Shown: positions 28,135-44,631 of the stretch, piece after piece
Layout of the letters: the number at the start of each line of letters is the position of its first letter
Numbering within the stretch: position 1 is the stretch's first letter
Assembly: GCA_030583785.1 (NCBI GenBank)
Contig: CP129475.1
Coordinates: 287,559 to 351,558, forward strand
Direction: 5' to 3'
Source of the DNA: Candidatus Dojkabacteria bacterium
GTDB taxonomy: Bacteria; Patescibacteriota; Dojkabacteria; B142; OLB20
DNA: 64,000 nucleotides
Notes under the pieces: model-generated
What the model was told of the DNA's origin: nothing
The model's input: the letters and a program-made list of their open reading frames with translations, nothing else
Database searches by the model: none
Position numbers and translations under genes: made by a program

Positions 28135-31100
28135 ATGACTGCACCAAAAAATCCGGAAACACCAAAGCCAGAAAGCATAGTGATCGCTCCTGACTTTGCA
28201 AAGCCAGAAGAAAAAAGAGATGAACCTCTTCCGGCAAGTGTTGCAGCAGACGACGAACAAACAAATCGAGAGAGAGCTTTAGCTGAAGCACAAAAGAAGA
28301 AGCTCGAACAACTTATTGCCGAAACAAGAAAGCCTAAACCAAATCTCAAACCTACCAAAGACACATCTGCAACTACTCAAGAATTACAAAGATATGCCGA
28401 CAGCGAAATACAAAAAGCTAAGTTAGAGAGTGATGCCGTTTTGAAGGCTATACAGGCAGAAGAAGAAATTGTAGCCAACGCACTAGAAAACATTATTGAC
28501 TTCCCTGGTTCAGGAACTGAAGTCGATCCAGCTGATTATCAAAGGCAAATTGATGAGCTTGGTTTTCAAGAAGCCGAACTTACAAAAAATCAAAAAATAA
28601 AAGTTAATGGGGCCCTTGCTAAAGCATCTGGTATAGAAGCTGAACTTATAAAGGCACATGGCAAAAGCACTGACCCAGGACTTATTGCAATCTTACTACA
28701 CCCAATCAAGAAAAGACTTGTAGCCCTAGCCATCTTTTTTGCAGGCAAAAATCTTAGTCGCGAAAGAAAGATAAGATTATTAAAAAGTGCGGGCTTTTCT
28801 AAAGAAGAGATAATCGCAAAGGTTGGCGACTTTGCAGAAGCGGATACAGAAGAACAGATAGATCAACCAGATTCTGAATTAGTTGAGCAAATTGAAGACA
28901 ATGGTCAAACTCCAGAAGATACTCCTAATACTCAGTCTCCAAGCGAGATTGTATCTTCTCTAAAAAAAAGACGAGAGCAGATACGAGAACAAGTCAGAAG
29001 TAGAAAACCCGAGCCGTTTAGTCCCCAAGAAGGTAATATTACAAAACAAGCAATTAGTTCTGCAGAAGCATATCTAGGTGAATACCCTGAACTGCACGAA
29101 GGATTTAAGTCATGGAAAGCAAAAATCGAAGAAGCAAACGAACAAATATTTGATCACCTTGCCCTAGCAGGGTCTTATGACCCAGCAAGTTTTGTTGAGA
29201 TCGGTGGAGGCTTCATTCCCGGACAGGATCCGGAGCAGACCGAACAAATGTCAAGCGAACAGGCAATTAAAACAAAAATTGCAGAAACATATAAACAATT
29301 CTTTCCAAACGACGAAATCGACACAATTGTTGATACCTATTTAAATGAAGTATCCAGTGCAGAAGACACAGCTAATGAGAGTCCTGTTTACAGACGCATC
29401 GGCTTTGAAATGAGAGCCATGGCCGAACTGCTTATTGCCAAAGATCGAAAGAACAAAGAATACGCAAGAATCTACTATGCTGCCGCTATGCAGGCTATGA
29501 ATTCAGAAGATACTGCAACCAGACTCTTACAAAAAAACGACGAAGGAATTTACGAAAACGATCTATTTGCAGTGCTCGGGCAAGAACCAGTCCTTTCTGA
29601 TGAAGCACAAGAATTTGCAGATCAAAGACTCAAAGATTTTATTCTTGCTGATCTAATTACAGATAATCAGGCTTTGGCAGAAGCAAGTAGACTCTTCGGT
29701 GCCAACTTTGAGCTTCATATAGGCGGAAGCGGTCCAATTATTATCACCGACCAAGAGACAATCCAACGGCTGGCTTCTCTTACTTCTTCGGGACAAATAG
29801 ATGAAGCTAGAGCAGCAGAGCTTGGAATTGACGGATTGACAATTAAAGGAACGGTGATTGCTACCAGAGACACATTGCCTCACGAAATGCTGCATCTCGA
29901 AAATGCCGCAATCAGATACCAAGAGAAACAGGCAAAACAGCTTCGAATACAAACGATCATCTCAAAAGAATTAGACAAGTTAGATGTTTCAATCAACAAC
30001 AGATCGCAAGCGATACAATTAATCACAGAATCGTATTTTGAATCTGGACTGGATGCCGAATCAATAAACGCCAAACTTAGCGAAGAGGGATTTCAAGACG
30101 AGCAGCTTGCAAATTATGTTAAATCACTTGTAGCTAAAGAAACCAGGGCAGGAAAGCTACTGAATTACTATAAAGAAATATCTAGGCCGCCTTTGTCCGA
30201 AGAGCTTGCAGCAACGATGCTATCTTCTGCATCAGGAGTTGAAATAAAACCGATCAATGCTGCCCAAATTGGAATTAATCCAGAAAAGATAGGTCAAGAG
30301 GGGATTAGTGAACAAGAGATGGTTATTATTACACTTATTAATGCTTACAACGAAGCTGCCGCAAAAGCACTAAATGACGACAAATTCAGAACTGAAGTAT
30401 TTAAGCCGAACCTTGAGATCTTTACATATCTGCTTTCACGAAAAAAAGATATGACTTTTGTGCAGTTGCGAAGATTCTTAGGTGAAGGTCCTTTAGCATC
30501 ACTTACTGCAGAATTATTTCCTAATCTATTCGCACAAGAACAAACCAAACAAGAAAATGGCAAATACTCTACAGCTAACATTCAGGCAATTATTCTTAAC
30601 AGGCTAACAAGTATTCCCAACTTTGCATCACTTACAGAAGAACAAAAACAAGAGTTGATTGCTATTGAAACAGAGCTTCTAATTGGCGATCAGTCTAATT
30701 ATCTTGATATCAATGGCATATCCTTCAATAAAGGTAGTATGTACTCTGGACTTCAGAAGAAGTTTATGACTAATCGAAAATATAACCCGGCCGCGGTGAA
30801 AGGGAGCAGAGGTGAGGTTGGTTTATGGTACTCGTTTTTTGGCAACCGAGCAACAATAGCAGAAGACACCAGACCTTTTGGATACTTCACTCCATTTGCC
30901 AGTTCTATGAAAATGAATGAAGCCTTTGGGGCATATGTTGTGCGAGGATTTCAAAAGGTAGCTGGCAAAAAATGGGGATCAAGAATTGCAGGAACCTTCG
31001 GTTTCCACGACGCCTTCGGGGCCGATCCAATAGGCAAAGGACTAGGTGGGCAGCTGTCTACGCTATGGCCATTTAGTGTAATCAGAGAGAAATATATTAA

Positions 31101-32991
31101 AAAAATCGACGCAGTCGATAAAACTTACATGGAAAGACTTACCTCTGCCAGAATAGCTGATACAGTTGCACAACATTCGGCATCAATTATTGGAGAACTA
31201 GGAAAAGAATCAAGTCAGGTAGTATTAATACTCGAATCAATAGGAGGTTTTAAGCAAGAAGCTCAAGGCTACGAGAATTCATTACGAGACTTCAGAGAAC
31301 CAGATGAACATAGATTTAATCGGGTCTTTTCAAAGTCCATGAATCTCCCGCCAAGTGATTTAAGAGAAAATTGGCTTGCTAATGACTCCATAATGGGCAG
31401 AGATATGGACGACCTTATTACTGAAGGTCACGAACTTTTTCTGCGCAAGGGGCAAATGTCAGATAACCTTAAAGAACTTATCGTTGCTCTTGTTCCAAAG
31501 GTAGAGAAGGATAACCCGAAAAGAAATGAGCGAATGAAGAAAAAAATTTATGGAATAGAATATGACTTAAAAGAACAATTTGAAAAGATTGCTAATGCAA
31601 TGATGACGGCCGATTTAGCTGAATTCAACAAAGCAAAAGTTGGAACAGCAGTTCCACTAGGCACAGTAATAAGGCATTACACGATCGAGGATCTAATCAA
31701 CGCTGTAGATCAAGCCGAAGCCGATCTTGATGATCCAGACAAATTAACAGACTGGCCACATGTGCGTGTGAAGATAGGAGAATCTACCGAATTATACGAA
31801 ATCGACCTTATAAAAGAATTCGTCAAGTACTTTTACAGTGCCAAGGCAGCAAAAGTAATCGAATTTGGCGTATACGGACAAAAAGCAGTAAAAGCAGAGA
31901 AGGCTCTAGCTACGAGTGTATTTACTGTTCCACTTGGCTTTAAAGACAACTCGTCGACAAACAACCAAGAAACAAAATCAATAGCCGGAATGTATCCAGA
32001 ATCATTCAGTCTGATGGAGACGCAAGAATATGACTATAGCAAAACACCTCCGACAACAATAGGGACTCCTATTGACAACAAGGCCGCACTAAAAATGACA
32101 GACCAAGATATCGAAAGTCTTCAGGCAAGAGGATATGTACTAATTAAACATCCTGATGACCCTACTAGAATCCTTCGCATTGAATTTTCTGATAAACAGA
32201 GAAGACACTTAAGTATGGTGAATTTTGTTGAGTATGACCAAGATGTAAAAATCATGAAGCAGACTCCTCAAGGGTTTATTACTCCACTCGCACCTGTAGA
32301 TGCTGCCACTGAAGATAGAAACAATTTTCTGTTTGGTCATATGGAATATGATACCGCTACTGGCAAACCATTAACTACATTTACCACCGAAAGAACAGAG
32401 AAATTAGTCGGGAAAGTCCCGATTGCAATAAGGGACGATATAGATAATAAAAATAGAGGATTAGGAATTTATTTCGAATATCTTCAAAAGCTGATGCAGA
32501 CAACAGAACTTGCAGAAGTCACTAGAAAGAGGGCGAAATTCTGGGCATTTATTACAAAAGTAAACAAGGTTATACGCTGGGGTGTTTATAGCGGTGTTGC
32601 TTTAGGACTAACAGTTTATCCGCCTTTATTGTCACTATCTCTACTTAGTCCAAATGTGTTCATCTCTGTAGTACTTTGGGATTGGTTTATGTCAAAATAT
32701 CTTGATCGCTCCCGAGACGGTTGGAAAGGTCGAAACGGAATTGCAGAAGAAACAGCTCAAAAACTCGAAGGGATGCGTAATACTTTTGAGCAATGCAGAA
32801 ATGGTCAAACTTTACCAACTGATACTCTCAACATGTTAGCTGCTTATACAAAAAACATCGAGAAAATGTGGGAAGATGTTATGGAGAAGTTCGAAAAGCT
32901 ATACAAATATAAACCTAACATGACACAAGAAGTCAGTTCGGCCGTTTTTGATTATTCTAGAGCTTTTATGAAAATGAATACTGATATGTAA
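28135..32991 (+). CDS. Giant protein (1618 aa), hypothetical; no signal peptide, one hydrophobic segment near the C-terminus
   Basis: Uninterrupted 4.86-kb ORF with ordinary codon composition. Acidic coiled-coil-rich N-terminus. HEMLH (HExxH) at 29881-29895. Predicted TM at about 32570-32690. First gene of a translationally coupled six-gene cluster. Confidence 0.6.
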   Translation: MTAPKNPETPKPESIVIAPDFAKPEEKRDEPLPASVAADDEQTNRERALAEAQKKKLEQLIAETRKPKPNLKPTKDTSATTQELQRYADSEIQKAKLESDAVLKAIQAEEEIVANALENIIDFPGSGTEVDPADYQRQIDELGFQEAELTKNQKIKVNGALAKASGIEAELIKAHGKSTDPGLIAILLHPIKKRLVALAIFFAGKNLSRERKIRLLKSAGFSKEEIIAKVGDFAEADTEEQIDQPDSELVEQIEDNGQTPEDTPNTQSPSEIVSSLKKRREQIREQVRSRKPEPFSPQEGNITKQAISSAEAYLGEYPELHEGFKSWKAKIEEANEQIFDHLALAGSYDPASFVEIGGGFIPGQDPEQTEQMSSEQAIKTKIAETYKQFFPNDEIDTIVDTYLNEVSSAEDTANESPVYRRIGFEMRAMAELLIAKDRKNKEYARIYYAAAMQAMNSEDTATRLLQKNDEGIYENDLFAVLGQEPVLSDEAQEFADQRLKDFILADLITDNQALAEASRLFGANFELHIGGSGPIIITDQETIQRLASLTSSGQIDEARAAELGIDGLTIKGTVIATRDTLPHEMLHLENAAIRYQEKQAKQLRIQTIISKELDKLDVSINNRSQAIQLITESYFESGLDAESINAKLSEEGFQDEQLANYVKSLVAKETRAGKLLNYYKEISRPPLSEELAATMLSSASGVEIKPINAAQIGINPEKIGQEGISEQEMVIITLINAYNEAAAKALNDDKFRTEVFKPNLEIFTYLLSRKKDMTFVQLRRFLGEGPLASLTAELFPNLFAQEQTKQENGKYSTANIQAIILNRLTSIPNFASLTEEQKQELIAIETELLIGDQSNYLDINGISFNKGSMYSGLQKKFMTNRKYNPAAVKGSRGEVGLWYSFFGNRATIAEDTRPFGYFTPFASSMKMNEAFGAYVVRGFQKVAGKKWGSRIAGTFGFHDAFGADPIGKGLGGQLSTLWPFSVIREKYIKKIDAVDKTYMERLTSARIADTVAQHSASIIGELGKESSQVVLILESIGGFKQEAQGYENSLRDFREPDEHRFNRVFSKSMNLPPSDLRENWLANDSIMGRDMDDLITEGHELFLRKGQMSDNLKELIVALVPKVEKDNPKRNERMKKKIYGIEYDLKEQFEKIANAMMTADLAEFNKAKVGTAVPLGTVIRHYTIEDLINAVDQAEADLDDPDKLTDWPHVRVKIGESTELYEIDLIKEFVKYFYSAKAAKVIEFGVYGQKAVKAEKALATSVFTVPLGFKDNSSTNNQETKSIAGMYPESFSLMETQEYDYSKTPPTTIGTPIDNKAALKMTDQDIESLQARGYVLIKHPDDPTRILRIEFSDKQRRHLSMVNFVEYDQDVKIMKQTPQGFITPLAPVDAATEDRNNFLFGHMEYDTATGKPLTTFTTERTEKLVGKVPIAIRDDIDNKNRGLGIYFEYLQKLMQTTELAEVTRKRAKFWAFITKVNKVIRWGVYSGVALGLTVYPPLLSLSLLSPNVFISVVLWDWFMSKYLDRSRDGWKGRNGIAEETAQKLEGMRNTFEQCRNGQTLPTDTLNMLAAYTKNIEKMWEDVMEKFEKLYKYKPNMTQEVSSAVFDYSRAFMKMNTDM

Positions 32992-32993
32992 TT

Positions 32994-33470
32994 ATGTTAC
33001 TAATATTCGATCCTAGAATAGAAGAATTAATGATTAAACACTTGGGTTTCAACGAACTCAGGCTTGTTGATATGAAACGAACTTATCGTGAAGCCTTAGA
33101 AAAGATTCAAGTTGACGAACTTTTTCAATATATTGAAGAAAATAACCTAGAAGAAGAATCTCAATTTATTGATAGTTTGTGTGAAGATACAGATGACAGA
33201 AGCAAACAGGTAGAAAATCTTGAAAGGCTCTATACCTATATTTTCGAATGTAACATTAAGCATCCACAGTATCGTGATCGAGTAGAGCAAAAAATTAGAA
33301 AAATTAACCAAGATTTAATCGATACTCTGTTCGACAATCTGCCAGCAGAAGCTATGGCAGAGATAGCGGCTATGTTTGTTGATGACATTAACATTATGCT
33401 GACAATAAAAAAAGCTAATCCAAGTTTCGAATTACCAGACAGATTAAACCAATTCGTCGACTCCAAATAG
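32994..33470 (+). CDS. Small acidic cytoplasmic protein, hypothetical
   Basis: ATG 3 nt after the giant ORF stop. 158 aa, strongly acidic, no TM. Confidence 0.45.
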   Translation: MLLIFDPRIEELMIKHLGFNELRLVDMKRTYREALEKIQVDELFQYIEENNLEEESQFIDSLCEDTDDRSKQVENLERLYTYIFECNIKHPQYRDRVEQKIRKINQDLIDTLFDNLPAEAMAEIAAMFVDDINIMLTIKKANPSFELPDRLNQFVDSK

Positions 33471-33501
33471 TTGCCATCGCTAATTATTCTTTCTATACTG
33501 A

Positions 33502-35004
33502 TTGTATTCAGATTTTATCTGCGTGCGTATGCATAAACTTGCTCATTCATTGCTTAAACCATTAAAAGGATTCAGAAAGGTTAATCCTGCATGGTTTCTA
33601 ATCTCTCTGTTAACTGTTGTCTTTCTTTTCACTAATGCATATAGAGTCGAGGCTGCGACTGCATACGATAACTGGGCCGGAGCAACTAGCCTTAGACCAA
33701 ATGCGCTCTATGGAACATTAACTGCTCTAAAAGTTCAGATCGATTGTACAGACGCAGATGGCAACTTTATCTGTCAAAACGAAGGAGCAACAGCATCGGC
33801 AATGGGTAATGTCACCGGAATCATCGCTTCAATGTATGAAAGTAGACCTTCAAGTGCAATCATCTGGGCACAAGATCAAGTCAACATGATTGCCGGCTAT
33901 GATTCAATTCTTGTTCAAGCCCAAGATACAACCTATTCACCTGGTATTGGATTCGAACTCATGCGACCTATCCTTGGTTTCTGGACCTGGGCCAGAAATA
34001 TTGCTTATTCATTCTTCATAATAATTCTAATTATTGTTGCTTTCCTAATCCTGTTTAGACAGCAACTAGGTGGACAGACTATGGTTACAATTGCAAACTC
34101 TCTACCATCAATATTAGTTTCTTTAGCTTTAGTAACCTTTAGTTATCCACTGTCTGCAATTTTCATAGATATTATTACGGTGGGGACCAATTTTACTTTT
34201 AGTGTAATGGTAGGTGCCGAAGGTTCACCTGGTTTTGAGTATTTTGACCAAAACCAGAAAAGTGAATTACAGCCAGACGACCCCAAAACCAGTATCTGGG
34301 GTGTGTGGGAAGCGACACAATGGAATACATGCGTTGGTAGTAATGCCGACAGTTGTGGTGTTAATAGACTTATTCCAGACTTGCCAGAAACAAATATGTC
34401 ATGGATAGCTGAAAGCATTCGACTTCTCGTTCCAGCAGGTGGAGAAGGTAACCCTACAAATATTCTTGTGAGTCTTTTAATCGCAATAACAGCCCTTGGA
34501 GCAGCGTTTAAACTAATGCTTGCCCTGCTAAACAACTATATAATTCTCACCACATTTCCGATATTTTCTCCGTTTGTTTTCTTAACAGCCGCAATACCTA
34601 GTGGTGGCGGGCCAATAAGTCCTGTAATCTCAAATTATTTCAAAATGCTTCTTGCATCAGCGCTAGTTTTTATTGCCATTTATGCAATTTTGCTATTCTT
34701 AATCGTTCTATCAGTATCCTTCGACCAAGAATTTAGCGGTGCCGGAAACGCAGTCTGGCAGCCACCACTTCTTGGCTATTCTGATGCAGCGGTTGGTGGA
34801 GGATTATTCAAAACAATTACTGTATTCGGAATATTTCTGTACTTGCCTTCAATTCCAGATTTAATTAAAGATAATCTAGGTGTAGCCAAAGGTAATGTAT
34901 TCTTCGAAACTATGTTTAGAAGAACCAATGAGTCAGCAAAATTCACTGCCGGTGCTGTAACCGGACTCGGAAGAAAGCTGAATGTCTTTGGTAATCCTGG
35001 CTAA
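33502..35004 (+). CDS. Polytopic membrane protein with signal peptide, Cys-containing extracytoplasmic N-domain and 6 TMs (VirB6/TrbL-like topology)
   Basis: Signal peptide ending ...AYRVEA|ATA. About 130-aa mature N-domain with two Cys pairs. Hydrophobic helices at about aa 160-185, 200-228, 305-330, 340-360, 375-400 and 425-445. A second Cys-containing loop (WNTCVGSNADSCGV). Confidence 0.5.
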   Translation: MYSDFICVRMHKLAHSLLKPLKGFRKVNPAWFLISLLTVVFLFTNAYRVEAATAYDNWAGATSLRPNALYGTLTALKVQIDCTDADGNFICQNEGATASAMGNVTGIIASMYESRPSSAIIWAQDQVNMIAGYDSILVQAQDTTYSPGIGFELMRPILGFWTWARNIAYSFFIIILIIVAFLILFRQQLGGQTMVTIANSLPSILVSLALVTFSYPLSAIFIDIITVGTNFTFSVMVGAEGSPGFEYFDQNQKSELQPDDPKTSIWGVWEATQWNTCVGSNADSCGVNRLIPDLPETNMSWIAESIRLLVPAGGEGNPTNILVSLLIAITALGAAFKLMLALLNNYIILTTFPIFSPFVFLTAAIPSGGGPISPVISNYFKMLLASALVFIAIYAILLFLIVLSVSFDQEFSGAGNAVWQPPLLGYSDAAVGGGLFKTITVFGIFLYLPSIPDLIKDNLGVAKGNVFFETMFRRTNESAKFTAGAVTGLGRKLNVFGNPG

Positions 35005-35010
35005 TAACCA

Positions 35011-36198
35011 ATGACATCTACAATTAATAACTCAGAAGAAATACTTAAGATTAATAAATCCATTTTTGAATTGGAGAATTTTTTCGTTGCAAATCTTGGA
35101 CCGCAGATACTTGATTACATATTTCTTTTTAGTAAAGAAGAAAGTCAAACCATCAAATTTGAACAAGTAACTGAAGAAGTATCCAAGGCAATGACTAGAT
35201 TCGTTGAACTTGTTAAACAATTGATGAACCTGCTCGAAGTTGAAGATGCAACCCCAACAGATGGAGGACTTAGCGAGAAATTTATTGACAGTATGCACGA
35301 CCTCTATCTACTTCGTTTTATCGAAGCAAAGAAGCAGTATGCAGACTACCAACTGGTAAGAGTCCCTACAAATACGGAACTAAGAATTCTTGATTTAATT
35401 CCTACAAAAGATGAAGATCTCAAGATTCTTCCCACTGCCATAAATATACAGCTCCCAGATATTTTTATCGTCGATGAAATGGGCAACTTAGATGTTGCCG
35501 CATCAATCCAACTAGAGGATTCTTATCATAAAATCGCCAGCTACTTAAGTACCATTGCCGAGATACCTAACCTGAAAGAACAAATGATTCAAGACTTAGC
35601 AGATATTACAATCTTCGAAAATGCTCCCAGTCTGCTTAGAAACGAACTACTTGATATTAGTGAAATGTTACTCACTTTAACTGTTAACTACTTCGCTGCC
35701 AGGGTGTATGGATATCTTTCCAGAGGGCAGTCTGTAAAAGAGGCAAAAACAAATGTACTTGCGTATTATAAAATGAACAGTATTGGGGCAGGCTCTGAGT
35801 TCCCTGAAAGCTTAAAGGATTTAGAAGAATCGATTGACGAGATATTAGACGAAGAACTTGAATCAATCACTGCACTTTATCCCGAAACAAGAGTCGCCTT
35901 AAAAGAAGATTATAAAGAACTATTATTATTCTATATTCATGATGCACTAATCATTCCCGAGAACTTTTATAAGATTGTCTACCGAGACTTAAAGGATTAT
36001 CAGGAAAATGATGAAAAATACAACATTCTTATTGACCTTTACCTGTTGCTTGAAGAAGGGCAAATGATTCCATTGCCTTCAGAGACATATAATATTGACT
36101 TAACCCAAGAAGCAAGAACTCTAATATTCAATGCTGTAACTGGTGGCCTTGAGAACCCAAACTTTACATTAATTGACTATTTGTCAGAAGTATCTTAA
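35011..36198 (+). CDS. Acidic cytoplasmic protein, hypothetical
   Basis: 395 aa, Glu/Asp/Leu-rich, no TM. Start 7 nt after the upstream stop. Confidence 0.45.
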   Translation: MTSTINNSEEILKINKSIFELENFFVANLGPQILDYIFLFSKEESQTIKFEQVTEEVSKAMTRFVELVKQLMNLLEVEDATPTDGGLSEKFIDSMHDLYLLRFIEAKKQYADYQLVRVPTNTELRILDLIPTKDEDLKILPTAINIQLPDIFIVDEMGNLDVAASIQLEDSYHKIASYLSTIAEIPNLKEQMIQDLADITIFENAPSLLRNELLDISEMLLTLTVNYFAARVYGYLSRGQSVKEAKTNVLAYYKMNSIGAGSEFPESLKDLEESIDEILDEELESITALYPETRVALKEDYKELLLFYIHDALIIPENFYKIVYRDLKDYQENDEKYNILIDLYLLLEEGQMIPLPSETYNIDLTQEARTLIFNAVTGGLENPNFTLIDYLSEVS

Positions 36199-37160
36199 TG
36201 CAAAAGGACGAAAGATTTGGCATAGTAGCCTTAACAACAACTGAACTTTCAGATCTGATTTCGAGCTGGAAATCTGTTAAGGATAAAAAGCCTATGGCTC
36301 CGGGTGATGCAGATAAATTGGTCGAAATATTAGAAAAGATCAGTAGTGAATTCGATAGTAAAAAAATTCCAGAGAAGACTGAAGTCCCACTCGCTCTAAT
36401 GGCACAAATGATTAGCGAAGATCCTAAACTTGTTCTATCGGCAATTAATCGCATTAACAGTTACATCTATTTACCCGAATCAAATAATGCAGTTGATCTA
36501 CAGGTTATAGAAAAGATTTATGCAACCTGGCAACAAAGAAAGGCTCAATTAGAAATGAAGGGTATTCTTCGTGTAACAGGAGCCCAAGATGAAATTCAAA
36601 TCACAGAATGGGAGAACACACTAATCTCAATGATTAACAAGGGAAGACAGAATAAATCAGTCTCTGGTGGTCAGAGTTCATATATTATTCCAACAAGCAT
36701 AGAAAACAGAGCTCTGAACATCATAAACTCTGTTAACAATGTTAACCTTAACGAGATTCGCACACCTATCAACTACGCAATGCTTGGACAAATTTTCAGT
36801 CGCAGAGATGCACTAACAAGTGAACTTAGAATACAGAACGCCAGGCTTGAAAGAAATTTTAAAAAGATTCGAATGAATGTATCGATGCATAGTGATCTGA
36901 AGAATATAATCATGGGTTCATCTATTAGGATTGAACAGATTCAAGGCAAAATGGAAGAGATGAAAAAACTTGATCCACAAGCTTTTGTAAACAATCCTGC
37001 ATTCTTACAGTTAAGGCAAGAGTTGCTTGGTCTTGAAAAGGACTTGAATGAGAGCAAACAACCACAACTTGAGGCTTTAATCAAAGAAGCAGAAGATCTT
37101 GAAAAAGAGAGAAAGTTAATATCAGATAAAATAATAGAAATTCAAAAGAAACTTCGCTAA
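36198..37160 (+). CDS. Coiled-coil protein, hypothetical
   Basis: Start overlaps the upstream stop (TAATG). C-terminal half has heptad-like K/E/L-rich coiled coil. Confidence 0.45.
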   Translation: MQKDERFGIVALTTTELSDLISSWKSVKDKKPMAPGDADKLVEILEKISSEFDSKKIPEKTEVPLALMAQMISEDPKLVLSAINRINSYIYLPESNNAVDLQVIEKIYATWQQRKAQLEMKGILRVTGAQDEIQITEWENTLISMINKGRQNKSVSGGQSSYIIPTSIENRALNIINSVNNVNLNEIRTPINYAMLGQIFSRRDALTSELRIQNARLERNFKKIRMNVSMHSDLKNIIMGSSIRIEQIQGKMEEMKKLDPQAFVNNPAFLQLRQELLGLEKDLNESKQPQLEALIKEAEDLEKERKLISDKIIEIQKKLR

Positions 37161-40081
37161 TGGCAACAGCAGGAAACAACGAAAATATTAATGTATACAA
37201 GTACTTCTTTGACCTTGAGCCAGAGATCCGTGAGATCGAATCTCAACTTAGGGTCATGGAAAATGACATCAAAGGATATAAAAATGATTGTCGAAACACA
37301 TTAAAACTAGTTCTTAGCACTTTAAGAAAAGCAAACTCTGTAACAAGGAACGATTCCTTCACTGCCGACGACGAAAGGATTGAAGCAGAGCTTAACGAAG
37401 AGTCAGAAGATCAGCAAAATCAAAGTCAGCAACAGACACCTACAAGCCAACAACCTCAACCTGAGCCCCAACCTGAACGACCTACGAGTTTCAAGGAAAG
37501 ATTTCGTGCCGAACTTAGAGGAGGAAAAGTCAATCCATTCATTAAAGCCGAGTACGATAATAAGGTTGTCAGAATGCAAAGAGCTCTTCGTAAAGGAGAC
37601 TATCTTGGACTACTGCTTGACCCAGATGTGCTTCCATGGACTCCACAAAGAAGGGCTAACAAAAAAATAATGGATGAATCGTGGCGTGTAGTTCGACAAA
37701 TTCCAAAAGAAGCAGCTAAGAGTGCGGGCGCCTTTGTATTAAAAGCCGCAATATCCGGAGGAAGCTATATTGGTGGCAAAGGCAAATCCGGAGTTCAAAG
37801 GGCAGCAGGGTTTGTATACAGGAATAGTAGTTTTGTACAGGAAAAAACCGAGTGGCTAAAGAAGCAATCAAAAAGTGTAAAAAGAACTCTTCGAAAGAAC
37901 ACAAAGGTTAGACTTGCTGCAACCAGAAGGGCTGCAGAAAGAAAACGCAAGAAAGATAAGCATGCTCTGCAAAAATTCCTGCTTGAAGGAACTCTTAGGT
38001 TCGCAAAAGATTTTGTCTTAGACAAAATCAACCAGTTAAGCGAGGCTGGCCAAAAACTCTATCGCGGAGTGAGGCAGGTTACTCACAATCGCTTCGTAAA
38101 TTCTCAGGTTGGAAAGAGTATAATCAACTCAAATACTGCCAAAAATATAAAAGTTGGATTAGAAACTTTTAAGAATACAGACACATATCGCAGTATAGCT
38201 TCCAGAACAAGCGCGGTAATCAATAACACCCCAGAAGCATTAAGAGCTACAGGCAGAAACATTGTTAGGGTAGGTGATTCAGTTAGAAACTCAAGAGCAG
38301 TTCGTTGGTCACAAGCTGGTATTTCAACTGGCGCAAAAGCGGTTGTCAAACCAGTCGAACTAGTTATTAAAAATAGATCAGCAATCTGGAACGGAGCTCG
38401 GGCCACAGCCAGAGGTGTCGTATCAGTAGGTAAAGCTGCTCCAAGAGGAGCAATGTCAGGTCTAGCCATGAGCCTCGTTACTCAAAATATTGCAGCTGGA
38501 GTGGCTTTCGGTCTAGCAGCAACTGCCGTGGGAAGTGTAGCAGCTTATAGCACCTCTAACGCAACCAGAGGACTTAAGAATGCAATGGGCGATTGGGATA
38601 ATTCCGCATTTGGAAAGAATCGGATATCTCCAGAAGCACAACAAAGAATTATCAATCGCGGAAATGTATATTCTAATGCCACCAGAGCTTTCCGAGCCTT
38701 AGATGCGGGAACGACTGTTGCTTCACTTGGAGCAATAGCTGCAACCGTTCTTGGAGGCAACCCCTTACTTGCAGCAGGATTTGGTTTTGCTGCCGGTGCA
38801 GGTGGCAGATTCCTTATTGATCGCTTTGTTGGGAACAGAGTAGCTCAGTATATGCAGGGTAATACAAGCGGTCTTCTGAACAAGATTGCTCACTTACCAA
38901 GTGGAGCTCTTCTAAATCAAGCAGTAAGTAGTCAATGGCTCGGGGAACAAATTCGCCTGTTAAGATCGGATTACGATAACGACCTAGGTAGATACCTTCA
39001 GGACAACTTTACCTTGACCGGAGGCGGTGGCATGCAAACTTTCACAGTCATTACAAATTATATCGGAGCAGCCAGCTACATTTCTGGGATTCACGCCGGA
39101 ACCAACGCACTTCTTTCAAGATATGGCAGCAGCGTTGCAATGGAATTCGCAAATAGGGGAATCGAAGGTAGTTTAGAACGAATCGGCTTAGGATTATCCA
39201 AGGGAGTTTCAAGTACTGGCTTTACCTGGAGGGGAGCACTTGGTTCTGTCGCCAATATCATCAAACAGCCATTTAGATTTATTGCCAGTGGGCCGTTATC
39301 GTTAACGAATCCAATAACGCTAGGAGCAACAGTTGGAGGGGTAGTAGGGACAGTTCTTGCAACTGCACTTGGCTTTGGTGGTCCGGCAGCACTTGCAGCA
39401 GGCGGTATCGGTGGGATAGCCGGTGCTGTCGCAGGAGCCTCTGCAGCCGGTGCACTTATTGGAGCTGCAACTTTAGGAACTGTCACTGCAGGAATAGGTA
39501 TAGGTATAGGTGCTGCCGTTGGAAGCTTCATCGGAACATTGTTTGGCTCGTATATTGGCAGCCTAGCTGATCGAACAGTAAATAGTGTCCTTGAAGGTTT
39601 TACAAATAGGGTGATAGGGCTATTCAACGGAGTAATGGCACTATTCAACTTAATGAAGATGCTTAGAAACGGGATTAATCCAGAAGATGCTCTCGGATTT
39701 CTTATGGCTTTCGGTATGTTGTTCACAATTATCTCCAGAAACTGGGAGCAGGGTGGAGAAGCGGTCTTTATTGAACAAGAGAATATTAAACAAGGCTACG
39801 AATCGATCGAGGAACCAAGGCAAGCTTACAAACTCGATCATTACAATATCAGTCTGATCAATACTAACGAACAATGGACTCCAGAAAGAATCCGTATCTT
39901 AATGGATTCACTTGCACAAACACAATCTGATGATTTTGAGAATGGAGATAGAAACATCCTCCTAGCAATTGGCCGAGAAGAATCTGTTGAAGTCGACGGT
40001 AATCTATTAATCTATATAGATCCAAACACATTTACCGGTAATTACAGAAACGAACCGATTCTCAGCTTTAACAATCTGTAA
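37160..40081 (+). CDS. Large basic protein (973 aa) with N-terminal coiled coil, Lys/Arg-rich region and Gly/Ala-zipper multi-TM block (tape-measure-like architecture)
   Basis: TAATG start/stop overlap with the coiled-coil gene. QQPQPEPQPE low-complexity linker. Poly-basic stretch (RKNTKVRLAATRRAAERKRKKDKH). Small-residue-rich middle. Hydrophobic GxxxG/AxxxA-rich block (about 39290-39600; ...GGIGGIAGAVAGASAAGALIGAATLGTVTAGIGIGIGAAVGSFIGTLFG...) plus two more helices. Confidence 0.55.
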   Translation: MATAGNNENINVYKYFFDLEPEIREIESQLRVMENDIKGYKNDCRNTLKLVLSTLRKANSVTRNDSFTADDERIEAELNEESEDQQNQSQQQTPTSQQPQPEPQPERPTSFKERFRAELRGGKVNPFIKAEYDNKVVRMQRALRKGDYLGLLLDPDVLPWTPQRRANKKIMDESWRVVRQIPKEAAKSAGAFVLKAAISGGSYIGGKGKSGVQRAAGFVYRNSSFVQEKTEWLKKQSKSVKRTLRKNTKVRLAATRRAAERKRKKDKHALQKFLLEGTLRFAKDFVLDKINQLSEAGQKLYRGVRQVTHNRFVNSQVGKSIINSNTAKNIKVGLETFKNTDTYRSIASRTSAVINNTPEALRATGRNIVRVGDSVRNSRAVRWSQAGISTGAKAVVKPVELVIKNRSAIWNGARATARGVVSVGKAAPRGAMSGLAMSLVTQNIAAGVAFGLAATAVGSVAAYSTSNATRGLKNAMGDWDNSAFGKNRISPEAQQRIINRGNVYSNATRAFRALDAGTTVASLGAIAATVLGGNPLLAAGFGFAAGAGGRFLIDRFVGNRVAQYMQGNTSGLLNKIAHLPSGALLNQAVSSQWLGEQIRLLRSDYDNDLGRYLQDNFTLTGGGGMQTFTVITNYIGAASYISGIHAGTNALLSRYGSSVAMEFANRGIEGSLERIGLGLSKGVSSTGFTWRGALGSVANIIKQPFRFIASGPLSLTNPITLGATVGGVVGTVLATALGFGGPAALAAGGIGGIAGAVAGASAAGALIGAATLGTVTAGIGIGIGAAVGSFIGTLFGSYIGSLADRTVNSVLEGFTNRVIGLFNGVMALFNLMKMLRNGINPEDALGFLMAFGMLFTIISRNWEQGGEAVFIEQENIKQGYESIEEPRQAYKLDHYNISLINTNEQWTPERIRILMDSLAQTQSDDFENGDRNILLAIGREESVEVDGNLLIYIDPNTFTGNYRNEPILSFNNL

Positions 40082-40092
40082 GATAAGAGGAT

Positions 40093-42018
40093 TTATTCTT
40101 GATTCTCGTTTTGACTTGCTATTCCATAACTTCCGTATGGATTGGCACTTTCAGCAGTTTTATTATCATAATCCAAAGATGAACCCTGTGGCACCACAGG
40201 CTTACTATCGCTAGCACTATCTGTGTTTTTTAGCCAGTCGGGGATTTCGTCATCGTTATAGATTGCTGGGGCAGCAACCTTCATCTCTTGAACGGGTTCC
40301 TGTTTACTAATAAAAGGGTCTTCGTACTCACCTATAGTCTGTGTTCCGATACTTGGCTCATACACTTCTGGTGTTGCATAAGTTGTTGTCTGGTCTGGCA
40401 TAACAATGGTTGTCTCTGAATATGGAATATCGGGATTAGGTACCAATGGCTGTGAATTATCTGTGTAAGTTACTGATCCATAGTCTGTAGCAATATCTGA
40501 AGAGCTTCTTCTGTTGCGAATTAGAAGTATATATAACATCCAAGGTACAACGATTAATAATAAGCCACAACAAAGGATTAACAATATAACTTGCGTCAAT
40601 TCAGCGCCCAGAAAAGAGAAAATATTTGCAGGATAAGAATCTGGATTACTATCTGGCATACTGTCTGGGAAAGAATCTGGTTCTGACTCGCCTGTATAAA
40701 AGAACCATTCTCTAACAGAGAACTTTCCGGCAGAATCAGTTACTCGAATTTGTATCTTGTGTCTTCCGTCGGCCAGATCTTCCGCAGGTTGACATTCTAG
40801 CTTTTCATCGGCAAAATCACATACTGTAAGTTTTTCTTCGTCAAGGAGAACTTCTATGCCTTCTTGCAACAATTCAGCATTTGTGGATGGTTTGATCGTA
40901 ACTGTGATTATTGGTTTTTTAAGAAGTGTCCTTTCTTCTTCTTGAGGAGATATTATTGTGATTAGTGGCGCTTCTTCTCCTGTATCTGAAGTAGAAATTG
41001 TTACATCAAACAGTTCGCTGATCTTTTCAATAGTTTTTCCCTCATTATTTGTCGCGATTATCCTTAATAAATACTTACCAGTCTCTACACCTTGCAGATT
41101 CCAGTCATAACTTGTTGTGCTACCGTTAAGATTAGCGATTTGAACCCAATTTTTACCTTCGTCCTTTGAATACGATAACAAAATGGAAGTCGGATTAAAC
41201 CTTTCAATATTCCAAGATAACTTATTGTTGTTTTTAGTAATAACGGTATCTTTTCCGGGAACAACAAAATTAATTGCTGCAGGCGGTAGATCGGGTTCGG
41301 TAACATTAAGAGTAAAAAACTGTTTGACTACACCTCCAAAACCATCGGATACAGTTATTGTAATTGGATAGGAACCAGCCGTAGTAATAGTTTTTTCTGT
41401 ATATATTAGTCCTGTATCTCTATTCATGTACAAGAAGAAATCTCCACCTTTATCTATTACATATGTGAGTTTATGGCCATCAGGATCTGTTGCCTGAACT
41501 TGATATGTAAAGTCTTCACCGACTTTAATTGATGAATTCGGAGGTTGAGAATTAATAACAGGAGGCCTATTGGTATTTCCAACGGCTACAGTATGTTTAT
41601 CGCAAAGTGAATAAAAATTATTGGGAAGTTCACGAAAAGTTGCACATATCCTTACACAGTAGAAACCATCTGGAATTGAACTTCTATTTTGTATGGGACC
41701 ATCAGTATCCCAGAGGTCTGTAAAGTAAGCTCCGTTTGCGCTGGCAGTTTTTGAACCCGATGCTATTGTCCCAAAATATGGACCATTAACTGAACAAGCA
41801 GAACTGAAAAGATCGATCTGGTAGGGTATGTCTGCTTTATCGACCTCTTTAAGAAAATATCGAACCTGTGAAATACCAGTGACAACAGCGTTATTTATAG
41901 GTGATGCAATATAAACTTCATCGTTGCCCTTTGTTACTGCGTACACCGGTGAACCCGAAACAAGCATAAAAAATGCGACAAGAGTCAGACCGATAATTTT
42001 TTTATATTGATTATTCAT
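40093..42018 (-). CDS. Type-I membrane surface protein with Ig/cadherin-like (dystroglycan-type) domain(s)
   Basis: N-terminal signal peptide. PPVINSQPPNSSIKVGEDFTYQVQATDPDGHKLTYVI...ITITVSDGFGG is a putative-Ig/cadherin-like repeat. More beta-rich domains follow. TM (ILLILCCGLLLIVVPWMLYILLI) and an about 110-aa cytoplasmic tail. Confidence 0.6.
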   Translation of the reverse strand: MNNQYKKIIGLTLVAFFMLVSGSPVYAVTKGNDEVYIASPINNAVVTGISQVRYFLKEVDKADIPYQIDLFSSACSVNGPYFGTIASGSKTASANGAYFTDLWDTDGPIQNRSSIPDGFYCVRICATFRELPNNFYSLCDKHTVAVGNTNRPPVINSQPPNSSIKVGEDFTYQVQATDPDGHKLTYVIDKGGDFFLYMNRDTGLIYTEKTITTAGSYPITITVSDGFGGVVKQFFTLNVTEPDLPPAAINFVVPGKDTVITKNNNKLSWNIERFNPTSILLSYSKDEGKNWVQIANLNGSTTSYDWNLQGVETGKYLLRIIATNNEGKTIEKISELFDVTISTSDTGEEAPLITIISPQEEERTLLKKPIITVTIKPSTNAELLQEGIEVLLDEEKLTVCDFADEKLECQPAEDLADGRHKIQIRVTDSAGKFSVREWFFYTGESEPDSFPDSMPDSNPDSYPANIFSFLGAELTQVILLILCCGLLLIVVPWMLYILLIRNRRSSSDIATDYGSVTYTDNSQPLVPNPDIPYSETTIVMPDQTTTYATPEVYEPSIGTQTIGEYEDPFISKQEPVQEMKVAAPAIYNDDEIPDWLKNTDSASDSKPVVPQGSSLDYDNKTAESANPYGSYGIASQNENQE

Positions 42019-43333
42019 TTTGGTTTAGTATTTGCTGAGCTGCTTCAAATGTTGCCTGACCTGACAAAACTTTGCGAAACTCTTCTTTCATAATATCTCC
42101 ATCCTTCATTGACCAAGTAACAGCTCGCGACATTGCTTGCACATAAGGACCAAGTAGCTCAGTTGATCTTTGGTCAGATAGTATCTCACCGGACATGTTT
42201 TGCCGTGGATAAATTATTCCGATTGGTCTGCCGTTTTCTTTAATTGTTTGATCAAGCAGGCGCAGTTGCTCTGGTTGTGAGATGAAATTTATAAAATCCC
42301 AGGCGATCTGTGAGTTTCTGCTATCTGAAGATACTGTTTGTCCCCAGTAACTGGCCCAATATTTTGTTTCTGTATCGCTAAGACTTCCAAGTTGAGGCAG
42401 CGGTGCCACTCCAAAGTTTAATCCCAAGTTGTATTCTTGATTATAGTTAATAATGTCTATTAACCTCCAACTTGGAGCTGCAAACATAGCCAGTTTCTTT
42501 TCGAGAAAAGAAGCAATATCTAACTTCATTGATGCACTCCAAGATACAGTACTACCGCTAACAAACCTCTTATAGGTAGACAAAGCCTCTTCAGATTTTG
42601 CTTTGTTTGCAGGATCAGCAAATACTGCAACACCATTTTGATCACTCATGGTGACCCCATTTTGGATCATGAATACATTTAGCATCTCTGTTGCAAATTG
42701 AGCATTACCTTCTGCTGCTGCAAATCCTCCGCTGATCATTCTGTTTGAATTGTCATACTTGGTAAGATTGGTCGCCATTCGTGAGAATTCGAGCCAGTCA
42801 TCACTCGGAAAAGTATAAGCACCTTCAAGAAGCTTATCTTTATTGTAAATAATAGCTAAGGCATCTACATACAATGGCAAGGCAAGAACTCCGTCATAGG
42901 CAAAATCTGAAAGTACAACGGGGTATAAAGCCCCTGTTGTATCTGCCGTAACAATAGTGGTTGGTGCCTTGCTAATCTTATCTTCATAAGCCCGACCCCA
43001 AGTGTTATGGATCGTAAATATATCTGGCGTTGTAAGAGGATTACCATCATTAAGAACTGTATCTAATTCTGACCGATAACCCGATACTCCATTTCTGACA
43101 CCTCGTTGATCGTATTGAATAGTTACATTAGGATTTCTAGCAGTATAGGCATCGATTAATGGTTTAACATTTTCATATGGTTCAAATAGGTTCCACCAAA
43201 TCAGGATGGTATTTTCAGGTTGTGAAGTCGGTACAGGGGTGACAGATCCAGTATCTGGAGAAGTACAAGCACTAAGAAATACTAGCGCAAGCAATGATAA
43301 TGCAATTGTTTTGACTCTAATCATGTTCATCAA
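42011..43333 (-). CDS. ABC transporter extracellular solute-binding lipoprotein (family 1, sugar/oligosaccharide type)
   Basis: Lipobox LSAC, length 440 aa. Overall pattern of cluster-D SBPs. No cognate permease or ATPase adjacent. Confidence 0.55.
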   Translation of the reverse strand: MMNMIRVKTIALSLLALVFLSACTSPDTGSVTPVPTSQPENTILIWWNLFEPYENVKPLIDAYTARNPNVTIQYDQRGVRNGVSGYRSELDTVLNDGNPLTTPDIFTIHNTWGRAYEDKISKAPTTIVTADTTGALYPVVLSDFAYDGVLALPLYVDALAIIYNKDKLLEGAYTFPSDDWLEFSRMATNLTKYDNSNRMISGGFAAAEGNAQFATEMLNVFMIQNGVTMSDQNGVAVFADPANKAKSEEALSTYKRFVSGSTVSWSASMKLDIASFLEKKLAMFAAPSWRLIDIINYNQEYNLGLNFGVAPLPQLGSLSDTETKYWASYWGQTVSSDSRNSQIAWDFINFISQPEQLRLLDQTIKENGRPIGIIYPRQNMSGEILSDQRSTELLGPYVQAMSRAVTWSMKDGDIMKEEFRKVLSGQATFEAAQQILNQNE

Positions 43334-44631
43334 TCTTCATTGTATTGTAAATTTACATTGCTTACCAATCTATCTTTTACTTTTACAGCAAAAGCGATCC
43401 AGGTTTGTCCACGGTTTAGCTCGATTGGATTCTCGTTTTCGTCAAAATACTTTGTTCTGCAAGTCCTGCAATCTTTCTGCCAATAACCTTCGATTACTTT
43501 CCCGTCGCGAAATATCTGCACACGATCTTTACCGATCATGTCGATAATTATCCTGCCATGTCCATCGTTTGCATCACCATAATTATGCCATTCAACTACT
43601 ACATTTTTTGGTGATATCTGCATTCCGCTTTGTAGATCAATATCTTCTTTACCAGCAATATATCGTTTGTAAGAATTTGACTGTTTATCATATGCAAATT
43701 CTGCCTGGAAATTACTGCCATTTGCCTTGAGAGTCATGAAATCTATTGTTAATTTTGAAAAATCACCTCTGTCTACAAAGTCGTCGTCGTATTTGAAAGA
43801 AAGTGGCTCTAATTTAGATGAACCCAGTTGCCACTTATTGGTTTTACCTAATCTTTCTACCTCTGGATTAATTAGCTTAAAGCCAGTGTACATGGCGTGA
43901 ACAGAGCCTGCAGTGCGAACTTTGGCAGGATCTCTATACCTCGTTGCTGCAGTTTGAATATTCTTAATTCCGAATTTTCTAATTGCGCCTCTAGCGTCGG
44001 CCTGTTCACGATAAGTTTCCCAAGGGGCATCATCGTAGCCGGCTTGTCCTTCGTGCAATATGATTGCGTCTGCATATTCAGATGTGAACATAATCATATA
44101 GTACCTAAGACTTCTTATCGGACCGACTTTTTCGACTTCTTGATTGGAATAATAGATCGGGACATAACGGGTTATACCACCCTCAGCCAAGAATTCTCCT
44201 ACTACATCAGCGTAGGTTAATCCATGTTGACTCCTGGCAGCTGGATAATTATTAATCGTTATTGCAACAGGATGCCTTGTTAGAAGTTCATCATACTGAG
44301 TTTTAGTAATCATGGTTCCATTAATAGGGTTTTCTGAATCTCGAATCTCTAAAGGTTTAGAGATTAGCTGTTTCTCGTAAGAATACTCGAGAACTGGGAT
44401 AGAAGTTACCAGTTTATAATCAGTATTCAATTTGTCGATATTTGGCTTTCTTAAAAAGTCTGATAATAATGCAAAAGAGAAGAATACTAAGAGAAATAAC
44501 CCAACAGCAGGTATTAGTTTTGTCAGTAACATTGACTTAATGTTTGAACTGACAGTCTTTTTACCGCCGATCTTATGATTTTTGATAGTTCCTCGTACTC
44601 GGAACTTGTCACTTTCTTCAAAGTTGTTCAT
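43330..44631 (-). CDS. Membrane-anchored extracytoplasmic protein, possibly DUF3048 (YerB-like)
   Basis: N-terminal TM anchor. ADVVGEFLAEGGITRY resembles the DUF3048 N-domain motif. Weak call. Confidence 0.35.
   Translation of the reverse strand: MNNFEESDKFRVRGTIKNHKIGGKKTVSSNIKSMLLTKLIPAVGLFLLVFFSFALLSDFLRKPNIDKLNTDYKLVTSIPVLEYSYEKQLISKPLEIRDSENPINGTMITKTQYDELLTRHPVAITINNYPAARSQHGLTYADVVGEFLAEGGITRYVPIYYSNQEVEKVGPIRSLRYYMIMFTSEYADAIILHEGQAGYDDAPWETYREQADARGAIRKFGIKNIQTAATRYRDPAKVRTAGSVHAMYTGFKLINPEVERLGKTNKWQLGSSKLEPLSFKYDDDFVDRGDFSKLTIDFMTLKANGSNFQAEFAYDKQSNSYKRYIAGKEDIDLQSGMQISPKNVVVEWHNYGDANDGHGRIIIDMIGKDRVQIFRDGKVIEGYWQKDCRTCRTKYFDENENPIELNRGQTWIAFAVKVKDRLVSNVNLQYNED

Follow-up and report, generated by a model that had tools for sequence, protein, structure and literature searches.

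The protein encoded by g6, a gene within a stretch of 64,000 nucleotides of Candidatus Dojkabacteria DNA (hereafter the window), carries a conserved glycine-zipper block, belongs to an orphan family, and is the product of the last gene of a cassette, g1–g6, whose gene order is fixed and whose third member, g3, is VirB6-like. It is identical to WKZ28279.1 / QY330_01575, a 'hypothetical protein' from a 1.17-Mb contig of Candidatus Dojkabacteria (WS6, ultrasmall bacteria within the candidate phyla radiation (CPR)/Patescibacteria). The explanation that we find most plausible, and hold tentatively, is that g6 is a resident integral membrane subunit, with its N-terminus inside, of a lineage-specific VirB6-associated envelope complex, in which the zippers would drive packing or oligomerisation. 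A first-pass annotation of this DNA, made from the sequence alone, had drawn attention to the zipper block and had suggested either a tape-measure role or that of a channel-forming secretion component. The second suggestion gains from the presence of the VirB6-like g3 in the operon, the specific role of g6 itself being a proposal; the first, as a statement of family membership, fails.

By glycine zipper we mean here a structural motif, (G/A/S)xxxGxxxG in a membrane helix, and not a homologous family. The block in g6 (Table 1) falls within 39290–39600, where it had first been placed, and the string then quoted corresponds to 71 residues, amino acids (aa) 726–796 (nucleotides (nt) 39335–39547). 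Tandem small-xxx-Gly series run through it: G722-G726-G730-(A734)-G738, A747-G751-G755-G759 and G792-G796-G800. The motif counts over aa 718–800 were compared with those of 5000 shuffles of the same 83 residues. GxxxG occurs 12 times, against 6.4 ± 1.8 after shuffling (P = 0.004), and small-xxx-small-xxx-small 23 times, against 12.4 ± 2.9 (P = 0.0002). When the whole protein was shuffled instead, the best 83-residue window never held more than 8 of the former or 13 of the latter. Since the counts exceed those of composition-matched shuffles, composition by itself does not account for the i,i+4 spacing.

The pattern is also conserved. In an alignment of 25 family members, Gly is present in 76–100% of the sequences at columns 726, 730, 738, 741, 747, 751, 755, 759, 778, 796 and 800 (the window protein has Ala at the Gly column 747), and the columns that lie between these and alternate with them are at least 76% Ile, Leu, Val, Phe or Met. 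AlphaFold2 (AF2) places helices at 718–736, 742–770 and 777–837, with a predicted local distance difference test score (pLDDT) of ∼63–72. Tandem repeats in a hydrophobic helix, conservation and predicted helicity are thus found together, and the block is a glycine zipper in the sense used here. As for the 'at least three or four' helices originally proposed, the model has three zipper helices, and two more hydrophobic helices follow up to residue 860. The Pfam glycine-zipper families PF13488, PF13436, PF13441 and PF05433 do not match the window protein at E ≤ 1; PF13488 matches one of the 25 relatives with E = 0.0063, below the curated cut-off.

The DNA of this region has features of its own. 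GC content rises to 0.45 at 38–40 kb, compared with ∼0.38 elsewhere, and a 211-aa antisense open reading frame (ORF; 39091–39726, − strand) with a Pro/Ala/Thr-rich translation overlaps the zipper region. The ORF is most likely a shadow of the GGN/GCN codon run rather than a gene, and the same codon run probably explains the rise in GC.

Ahead of the zipper, the N-terminal coiled coil and the long Lys/Arg-rich segment that the first-pass annotation had described are both recognisable. Hydrophobic occupancy of heptad positions a and d is 0.71 over residues 14–62, as against 0.20 elsewhere, and AF2 gives one long helix, 13–65, at the N-terminus, with low pLDDT. The net charge is +49 over residues 101–500, and aa 110–430 are probably cytoplasmic. 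In the C-terminal half, the hairpin at aa 513–549 is the best-modelled part of the protein (pLDDT 79–86), with a nearly invariant G532, and the family motif G-S-x-F-D-K, which follows the zipper, reads SLAD in the window protein. The full-length AF2 model, calculated with the family alignment as input, is poor overall (pLDDT 54.7, predicted template modelling score (pTM) 0.34). It is locally better at residues 470–570 (pLDDT 71–86) and 590–640, in the zipper and in the C-terminal domain (∼80–86), and everything up to residue 865 is modelled as helical.

Judged by sequence comparison, g6 belongs to a small orphan family for which there is no curated model. It has no match in Pfam, PHROG or NCBIfam (Pfam at E ≤ 1 returns unrelated noise; the PHROG cut-off was E ≤ 0.1), and searches of PDB sequences, with g6 alone and with the family profile, returned only low-complexity noise in the N-terminal region. 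Foldseek of the full model against the PDB found generic polytopic transporters only (E ≥ 0.1), a result that is uninformative given the pLDDT of 54.7. No assignment to a housekeeping membrane protein family, which the first-pass annotation had named as evidence against its proposal, was found in these searches. When 1.84 billion cluster representatives were scanned exhaustively with HMMER, 37 relatives were recovered at E ≤ 1e-3, only two of them at E ≤ 1e-30. A word-indexed homologue search found the near-identical cluster only, probably because Gly/Ala-rich words swamp the candidates; with the zipper removed from the alignment, this type of search gave no relatives. A two-sequence search of GTDB genomes recovered only WS6 OLB20, whose g6 is 37% identical to that of the window over its full length. 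The family thus appears to be rare and confined to Candidatus Dojkabacteria, as far as synteny and source names, on which this taxonomic spread rests in place of a genome-wide census, can show.

Within the 25-member alignment, a C-terminal core of ∼500 aa is conserved and the N-terminal half is variable. None of the family members has a signal peptide or an early transmembrane (TM) segment, and in each a strongly basic stretch stands directly ahead of the first hydrophobic segment. A C-x4-11-C pair follows the last hydrophobic helix and precedes the C-terminal domain (aa 861–888 of the window protein, nt ∼39740–39820) in 16 of the 25 relatives, and in 14 of these 16, proteins of 620–1560 aa, the pair supplies the only two cysteines. 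Its absence from the window protein, OLB20 and a few others suggests a disulfide or metal site lost in one sub-lineage. The variable N-termini contain Ig-like He_PIG/Cadherin domains in P0057 (aa 71–418), P0054 (298–385) and P0052 (345–399), and J-domains with an HPD motif in P0081 (HPD at 616) and P0070 (HPD at 116). Being present in few members only, neither domain was accepted as a hallmark of the family, and we use them as clues to topology instead. The Ig-like domains of the three relatives resemble the Ig domain encoded by the convergent neighbour of g6.

That g6 is the last gene of its operon, and in a non-phage context, was correctly noted at the outset. It closes a co-directional, tightly packed series; its ATG overlaps the stop codon of g5 (TAATG), g5 shows translational coupling with its two neighbours, g4 and g6, and the end of a convergent gene lies 11 nt beyond g6. 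Housekeeping genes flank the cassette in the window (Obg, ADP-forming acetyl-CoA synthetase, CTP synthase and alanyl-tRNA synthetase). Nine related loci were readable (L006, from WS6 OLB20, L007, L010 and L012–L017), and all nine have the order g1-g2-g3-g4-g5-g6 or as much of it as the contig holds. Where flanks are visible, Obg and ADP-forming acetyl-CoA synthetase lie upstream, and a convergent Ig protein, a solute-binding protein, DUF3048 and CTP synthase downstream. This synteny persists down to ∼20% g6 identity. Because order and neighbours are the same across the related loci, we regard the cassette as a vertically inherited chromosomal unit and not as mobile or phage DNA, and the shared arrangement points to the inheritance of one functional unit. 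L013 and L017 have no separate g5: directly after g4 comes an extra-long g6 (1561 and 1425 aa; L013 2–5263, L017 3–5258, the counterpart of 36198–40081 in the window). Its first 80–150 residues can be aligned with the beginning of the g5 profile (hhalign E = 3.1e-4 for L013 and 1.6e-4 for L017), which looks like a g5–g6 fusion and would tie g5 functionally to g6. The products of g1–g5 have no match in Pfam, PHROG or NCBIfam, and PDB sequence searches with profiles of g4 and g5 found nothing.

The one cassette member that can be compared with a known protein is g3, which we take, with moderate confidence, to be VirB6-like. It has an N-terminal anchor and about six strongly hydrophobic helices, and shows the features expected of VirB6/TrbL, namely a polytopic inner-membrane protein with at least five TM helices and a large extracytoplasmic loop. 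The AF2 model has a pTM of 0.66, with pLDDT 80–94 in the TM core. When it was compared with 350,542 PDB chains, ranks 1–3 and 5 were taken by R388 TrwI/VirB6 (probabilities 0.94, 0.82, 0.51 and 0.80), the top matches being 8rtd_L (0.94) and 8rt9_F (0.82), together with 7o3v chains G, J, I and H. The UniRef name of the OLB20 orthologue is 'TrbL/VirB6 plasmid conjugal transfer protein'. There are 48 detectable homologues of g3, of which two distant ones, P0015 and P0048 (HMMER E = 1e-25 and 1e-9; local search 5e-33 and 6.5e-17), lie in CPR loci with arrays of 5–11 T4SS_pilin (VirB2-like) genes, PrgI, a TraC-like gene and an AAA_10/DUF87/P-loop_TraG ATPase. This is the gene set reported for Patescibacteria's type IV secretion system (T4SS; PMC12102498). 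Few or no VirB6 homologues are reported by the same survey for Microgenomatia and Gracilibacteria, 'suggesting extreme sequence divergence', and a term search of its main text found neither Dojkabacteria nor WS6; the g3 family may belong to the VirB6 set missing from it. It has been remarked, in a general way, that novel transmembrane families occur beside virB6 in Patescibacteria (PMC10849945).

Some details of the pilin loci may be recorded here. In L008 (4817–7571) and L009 (1–4108), the array of 5 and at least 11 T4SS_pilin genes, respectively, is succeeded by a gene whose unannotated product has ∼800 aa and a single TM segment, at the N-terminus. The VirB6-like gene comes directly next in L008; two opposite-strand genes lie between in L009. 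L008 also has HEPN/HepT-nucleotidyltransferase toxin–antitoxin pairs between its pilin module and its PrgI/VirB4 module.

Table 1. Genes of the cassette and parts of the g6 protein (nucleotide positions are those of the window)
Feature	Nucleotides	Strand	Residues of g6	Description
g1	28135..32991	+		1618 aa; acidic giant protein, first in cassette
g2	32994..33470	+		158 aa; acidic, soluble
g3	33529..35004	+		491 aa; polytopic, VirB6/TrbL-like; alternative TTG start at 33502 gives 500 aa
g4	35011..36198	+		395 aa; acidic, soluble; best-conserved soluble member of the cassette
g5	36198..37160	+		320 aa; soluble, helical, probably coiled coil
g6	37160..40081	+	1-973	973 aa; pI 9.93, basic
N-terminal probable coiled coil	37199..37345	+	14-62	Acidic segment; heptads, AF2 helix
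Lys/Arg-rich helical region	37487..38449	+	110-430	Length and content vary among relatives
First hydrophobic segment	38489..38551	+	444-464	IAAGVAFGLAATAVGSVAA; AF2 helix 444-470
Helix, GGNP turn, helix hairpin	38696..38806	+	513-549	Gly/Ala-rich, conserved
Non-hydrophobic core	38807..39109	+	550-650	Conserved; motif IP..(10)..N.W...Q.......Y.GN.G.YL..N
Glycine-zipper block	39311..39559	+	718-800	Motif counts, conservation, AF2 helices
Zipper helix A			718-740	G722/726/730/738; then G-G-P turn 740-742
Zipper helix B			743-762	A747/G751/G755/G759; then variable loop
Zipper helix C			777-800	G778/792/796/800
Motif and two hydrophobic helices	39560..39739	+	801-860	Motif G-S-x-F-D-K, then helices 816-836 and 844-860
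C-terminal domain	39824..40024	+	889-955	Small, conserved, alpha/beta; AF2 pLDDT ∼80-86

From these observations we propose that g1–g6 encode a Dojkabacteria-specific envelope complex built around the VirB6-like g3. The acidic coiled coil and the Lys/Arg-rich half of g6 (aa 1–430) would lie in the cytoplasm with the soluble partners g4 and g5, and several helix-turn-helix hairpins of marginal hydrophobicity would hold aa 440–973 in the membrane, the small alpha/beta domain at the C-terminus being probably extracellular. The zippers at aa 718–800 would allow backbone-to-backbone packing of helices, within a chain or between protomers, and the resulting oligomeric bundle or channel would work beside g3. 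The J-domains of two relatives, the g5-like fusion and the basic stretch before the first hydrophobic segment are clues to a cytoplasmic N-terminal half. In particular, the N-terminus is placed in the cytoplasm because the fused g5 has no TM segment. At the other end, the C-x4-11-C pair suggests a disulfide, and hence a C-terminus on the outside. Topology, oligomerisation, channel function and a link to a VirB4-powered T4SS are all things that we infer.

Several observations weigh against a resident membrane subunit beside a VirB6-like protein. A crude position-independent Hessa sum for the hydrophobic segments of g6 ranges from +1.9 to +4.9 kcal/mol, which is marginal for Sec-type insertion (the sums for the best helices of g3 are −5.7 and −4.9 kcal/mol), and such marginal hydrophobicity is more typical of proteins that insert after synthesis. 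The three relatives with N-terminal Ig-like He_PIG domains and no signal peptide sit badly with a cytoplasmic N-terminus. The poor full-length model does not establish how the helices of g6 pack. The fold match between g3 and VirB6 is not statistically significant (E = 0.16–2.9, TM-score about 0.2–0.42), Pfam TrbL_4 matches only one of 34 g3 relatives (E = 0.005), and the g3 profile found nothing among PDB sequences. Neither the cassette nor the window has an ATPase, a pilin, VirB3 or VirB8, and no VirB4 or other T4SS gene was found within the 64 kb. Finally, g6 and the other four non-g3 cassette genes are absent from the P0015 and P0048 loci: an analogue of g6 was looked for in these two pilin/VirB4 loci with phmmer, with the family hidden Markov model (HMM), by aligning the 799- and 816-aa neighbours in hhalign and by scanning for dense zipper motifs, and none turned up. 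Because the g6 family is absent there, the link to the T4SS runs through g3 only.

Some of the same observations would be accounted for if g6 were itself exported. It would then be a translocator or pore former, a substrate of the VirB6-like channel that owes its solubility in the cytoplasm, before export, to the acidic partners g2, g4 and g5, and its zipper helices would insert into the envelope of the host bacterium that the cell lives on and form a conduit, a function comparable to that of a phage tape measure, of VirB5 at the tip of the T4SS stalk or of the glycine-zipper effectors. The lack of signal peptides throughout the family fits such a route, as do the marginal hydrophobicity of all g6 segments and the Ig-like He_PIG/Cadherin domains of P0057, P0054 and P0052, which are normally extracellular. 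Small acidic soluble proteins of the operon could be chaperones. Weak tape-measure signals, from phrog_28 on the P0063 zipper (E = 2e-6) and among the top matches in BFVD, point the same way, but these are either non-significant or limited to a compositionally biased block. Membrane-permeabilising glycine-zipper effectors are documented, for example TelE (PMC10434224), and T4SS-like pili reaching toward the host have been described in a cultured Microgenomatia strain (bioRxiv 10.64898/2026.06.21.733656). However, the J-domains and the apparent g5 fusion favour a stable cytoplasmic N-terminal half, there is no nearby ATPase gene to power export, and g6 is single-copy, syntenic and vertically inherited with no immunity-like gene downstream, unlike typical toxins. 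On balance we consider export of g6 doubtful, though it is the leading alternative.

Unlikely, in our judgement, is a lineage-specific envelope scaffold unrelated to secretion, which might organise membranes, act at the cell surface or be associated with division, and in which the zippers would stabilise a helical bundle. The VirB6-like fold of g3 would then be an ancient or coincidental resemblance. The fixed position of the cassette among housekeeping genes favours such a scaffold, no T4SS ATPase or pilin is nearby, the fold and sequence matches of g3 to VirB6 lie below significance, and the convergent genes for an Ig-domain membrane protein, a solute-binding protein and DUF3048 suggest an envelope or uptake neighbourhood. 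Yet chance is a poor explanation for the presence of g3 homologues in genuine pilin/PrgI/VirB4 loci, and also for VirB6 chains at ranks 1–3 and 5 of 350,542.

A bolder combination, which we regard as distinctly improbable, would make g1–g6 a Dojkabacteria-specific offshoot of the CPR T4SS. Here g6 would be exported via the VirB6-like channel, and its zipper hairpins would form a conduit in the host membrane by which a metabolically reduced episymbiont would take up host material; g2, g4 and g5 would serve as cytoplasmic chaperones or adaptors, and g1 would be an HExxH enzyme delivered together with g6. If this were true, g6 would be the cellular counterpart of a phage tape measure or of the VirB5 tip.

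The tape-measure role of the first-pass annotation, taken literally as a phage tail tape-measure protein or a prophage or tailocin remnant, is very unlikely and effectively refuted. What speaks for it is that g6 is a long all-helical protein with hydrophobic Gly-rich segments, that three of the 25 relatives give weak PHROG tape-measure matches (phrog_167, best E = 3.3e-5; phrog_28, 2.1e-6), and that the best BFVD fold matches of g6 are annotated as tape measure or minor tail proteins. The one PHROG match that was mapped, P0063 residues 574–738 against phrog_28, covers only the zipper and the hydrophobic helices that follow it, and the BFVD matches have E = 0.011–1, probability ≤0.30, a TM-score of ∼0.08 and a root mean square deviation (rmsd) of 30–50 Å. 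The window protein itself matches neither tape-measure model proposed for checking, PF10145 or PF06791, there being no Pfam tape-measure match at E ≤ 1 and no PHROG match at E ≤ 0.1. Neither the 50,697 phage records (E ≤ 0.01) nor the 72,556 plasmid records searched by tblastn contain a match to g6. Pattern scans of IMG/VR viral contigs with two query sets found no relative, these narrow scans being a weaker negative than tblastn. There are no tail genes near g6, its five operon partners match no structural PHROG, and the locus keeps its place among housekeeping genes even where g6 identity has fallen to ∼20%. The likeness to tape measures fits shared composition and architecture, that is, long helices and Gly-rich hydrophobic segments, and not homology. 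In practice, a tape-measure label on g6 should be avoided in annotation.

Low-complexity sequence lying outside the membrane, for instance a surface fibre rich in Gly, which the first-pass annotation had named as a finding that would refute it, or a disordered linker, is hardly credible and is effectively refuted: although residues 701–800 are 25% Gly and 20% Ala, the conserved columns between the zipper glycines are hydrophobic, the i,i+4 spacing exceeds that of composition-matched shuffles, the AF2 zipper helices are more confident than the surrounding regions, and the block has no charged or polar repeats, a net charge near 0 and no Asp or Glu, all in keeping with the tightly packing hydrophobic helices originally proposed.

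The remaining genes of the locus can be described briefly. The giant g1 has a semi-conserved HExxH motif, HEMLH at aa 583 (nt ∼29881–29895), which may be a minimal zincin metallopeptidase site; g1 has no Pfam match. A similar context (…G[VL]TI.G.[VI]I…HE[LM].H…[AL][LI]R[QY]) surrounds HELGH in L006, HELSH in L007 and HELFH in L010, but does not recur in L015; in WS6 OLB20 g1 is split just past the motif into two ORFs (752 and 1025 aa). Divergently upstream of g1, at 26866–28062 (− strand), lies a gene without a Pfam match whose product, of 398 aa, is rich in Pro, Thr, Ser and Ala and has one TM segment, at the C-terminus; the gene in the same position encodes 404 aa in L006 and 379 aa in L007. 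The best sigma-70-like match of the operon region is in the g2–g3 gap (33471–33499, + strand; TTGCCA, 17 nt, TATACT, 10/12) and might be an internal promoter for g3–g6, although promoter-like sites are rarer than in shuffled sequences. Downstream, the convergent trio (40093–44631, − strand) encodes a 641-aa He_PIG/Big_13 Ig-domain membrane protein, a solute-binding protein (SBP_bac_1/8) and DUF3048. It is complete in L006, L007, L012 and L014, and the solute-binding protein gene alone is seen in L010. Elsewhere in the window, a P-type cation ATPase is present as two overlapping ORFs on the + strand, 15013–15858 (Cation_ATPase_N, E1-E2_ATPase) and 15788–17470 (Hydrolase, Cation_ATPase_C), which suggests a frameshift, a pseudogene or an assembly error.

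What the locus may offer is best seen against the biology of the group. CPR bacteria (Patescibacteria) are believed to spend their lives fixed to other bacterial cells, and little has been learned about the means by which they breach or tap the envelope of the host. In the one genetically tractable lineage, T4SS-like genes are essential for epibiotic growth (as summarised in PMC12102498). The window provides a candidate divergent VirB6 in g3, five unannotated partner genes fixed beside it and, in g6, conserved glycine-zipper hairpins of the kind that builds oligomeric membrane pores. The g6 family is unannotated; glycine-zipper helices and VirB6-centred machines are both of known kinds. We regard g6 as a well-defined candidate, amenable to testing, for a component of the host interface of an uncultured class, tied to secretion through one neighbour, g3. 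Should the cassette prove to be a host-interface machine, there would be a defined, class-wide gene set to test; should it be only a lineage-specific membrane scaffold, it would add one more to the many orphan membrane protein families that CPR genomes hold.

Among known systems, the VirB6/TrbL translocon of the T4SS is the closest to the envelope complex that we favour. In the T4SS stalk, the hydrophobic helices of VirB5 are proposed to contact the target membrane. The translocon (R388 TrwI–TrwJ stalk; monoderm MPF-FATA; Patescibacteria T4SS, PMC12102498) is resembled by the polytopic g3 with its TrwI/VirB6 fold matches, by the distant g3 homologues beside VirB2-like pilin arrays, PrgI and VirB4, and by g6 as a co-transcribed membrane protein that would adjoin the g3 channel. 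Unlike its parts, g6 has no detectable homology to a named T4SS component and is four to five times the size of VirB5. The cassette also differs in being without ATPase, pilin, VirB3 and VirB8, and g6 in being absent from the pilin/VirB4 loci that we examined.

Phage tape measures (PF10145, PF06791; PHROG 28 and 167) share with g6 a long, mostly alpha-helical, basic chain with internal Gly/Ala-rich hydrophobic segments, and the mapped weak profile match of P0063 falls exactly on a zipper block of the g6 type. In contrast to them, g6 lacks a significant sequence or fold match, a phage context and phage or viral relatives, its locus is chromosomal, syntenic and vertically inherited, and its conserved globular C-terminal domain and non-hydrophobic core are not tape-measure features.

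The glycine-zipper effectors are represented by the type VII secretion system LXG effector TelE (PMC10434224). Tandem GxxxG/AxxxG motifs are known to drive the formation of oligomeric pores. Such motifs, marginally hydrophobic helices and the lack of a Sec signal are found in g6 as well. Effectors of this type, however, are either small or equipped with recognisable delivery domains (LXG, PAAR, Rhs), lie beside an immunity gene and in many cases are mobile or variable; none of this applies to g6. No Pfam domain of any kind, and so no delivery domain, was found in it, and the 11 nt between g6 and the stop codon of the convergent 641-aa Ig-domain gene leave no room for a small downstream (immunity) ORF. 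Further glycine-zipper pore formers are Tse4/Ssp6 of the type VI secretion system and the VacA N-terminus.

Finally, the Pfam glycine-zipper domains (PF13488 Gly-zipper_Omp, PF13436, PF13441 and PF05433, the '2TM glycine zipper' of SlyB-like lipoproteins) come from short outer-membrane lipoproteins of diderms, whereas g6 is a CPR protein of ∼1000 aa; what the two have in common is the design of helix, tight turn and helix with Gly at i,i+4, the turn being supplied in g6 by G-G-P at 740–742.

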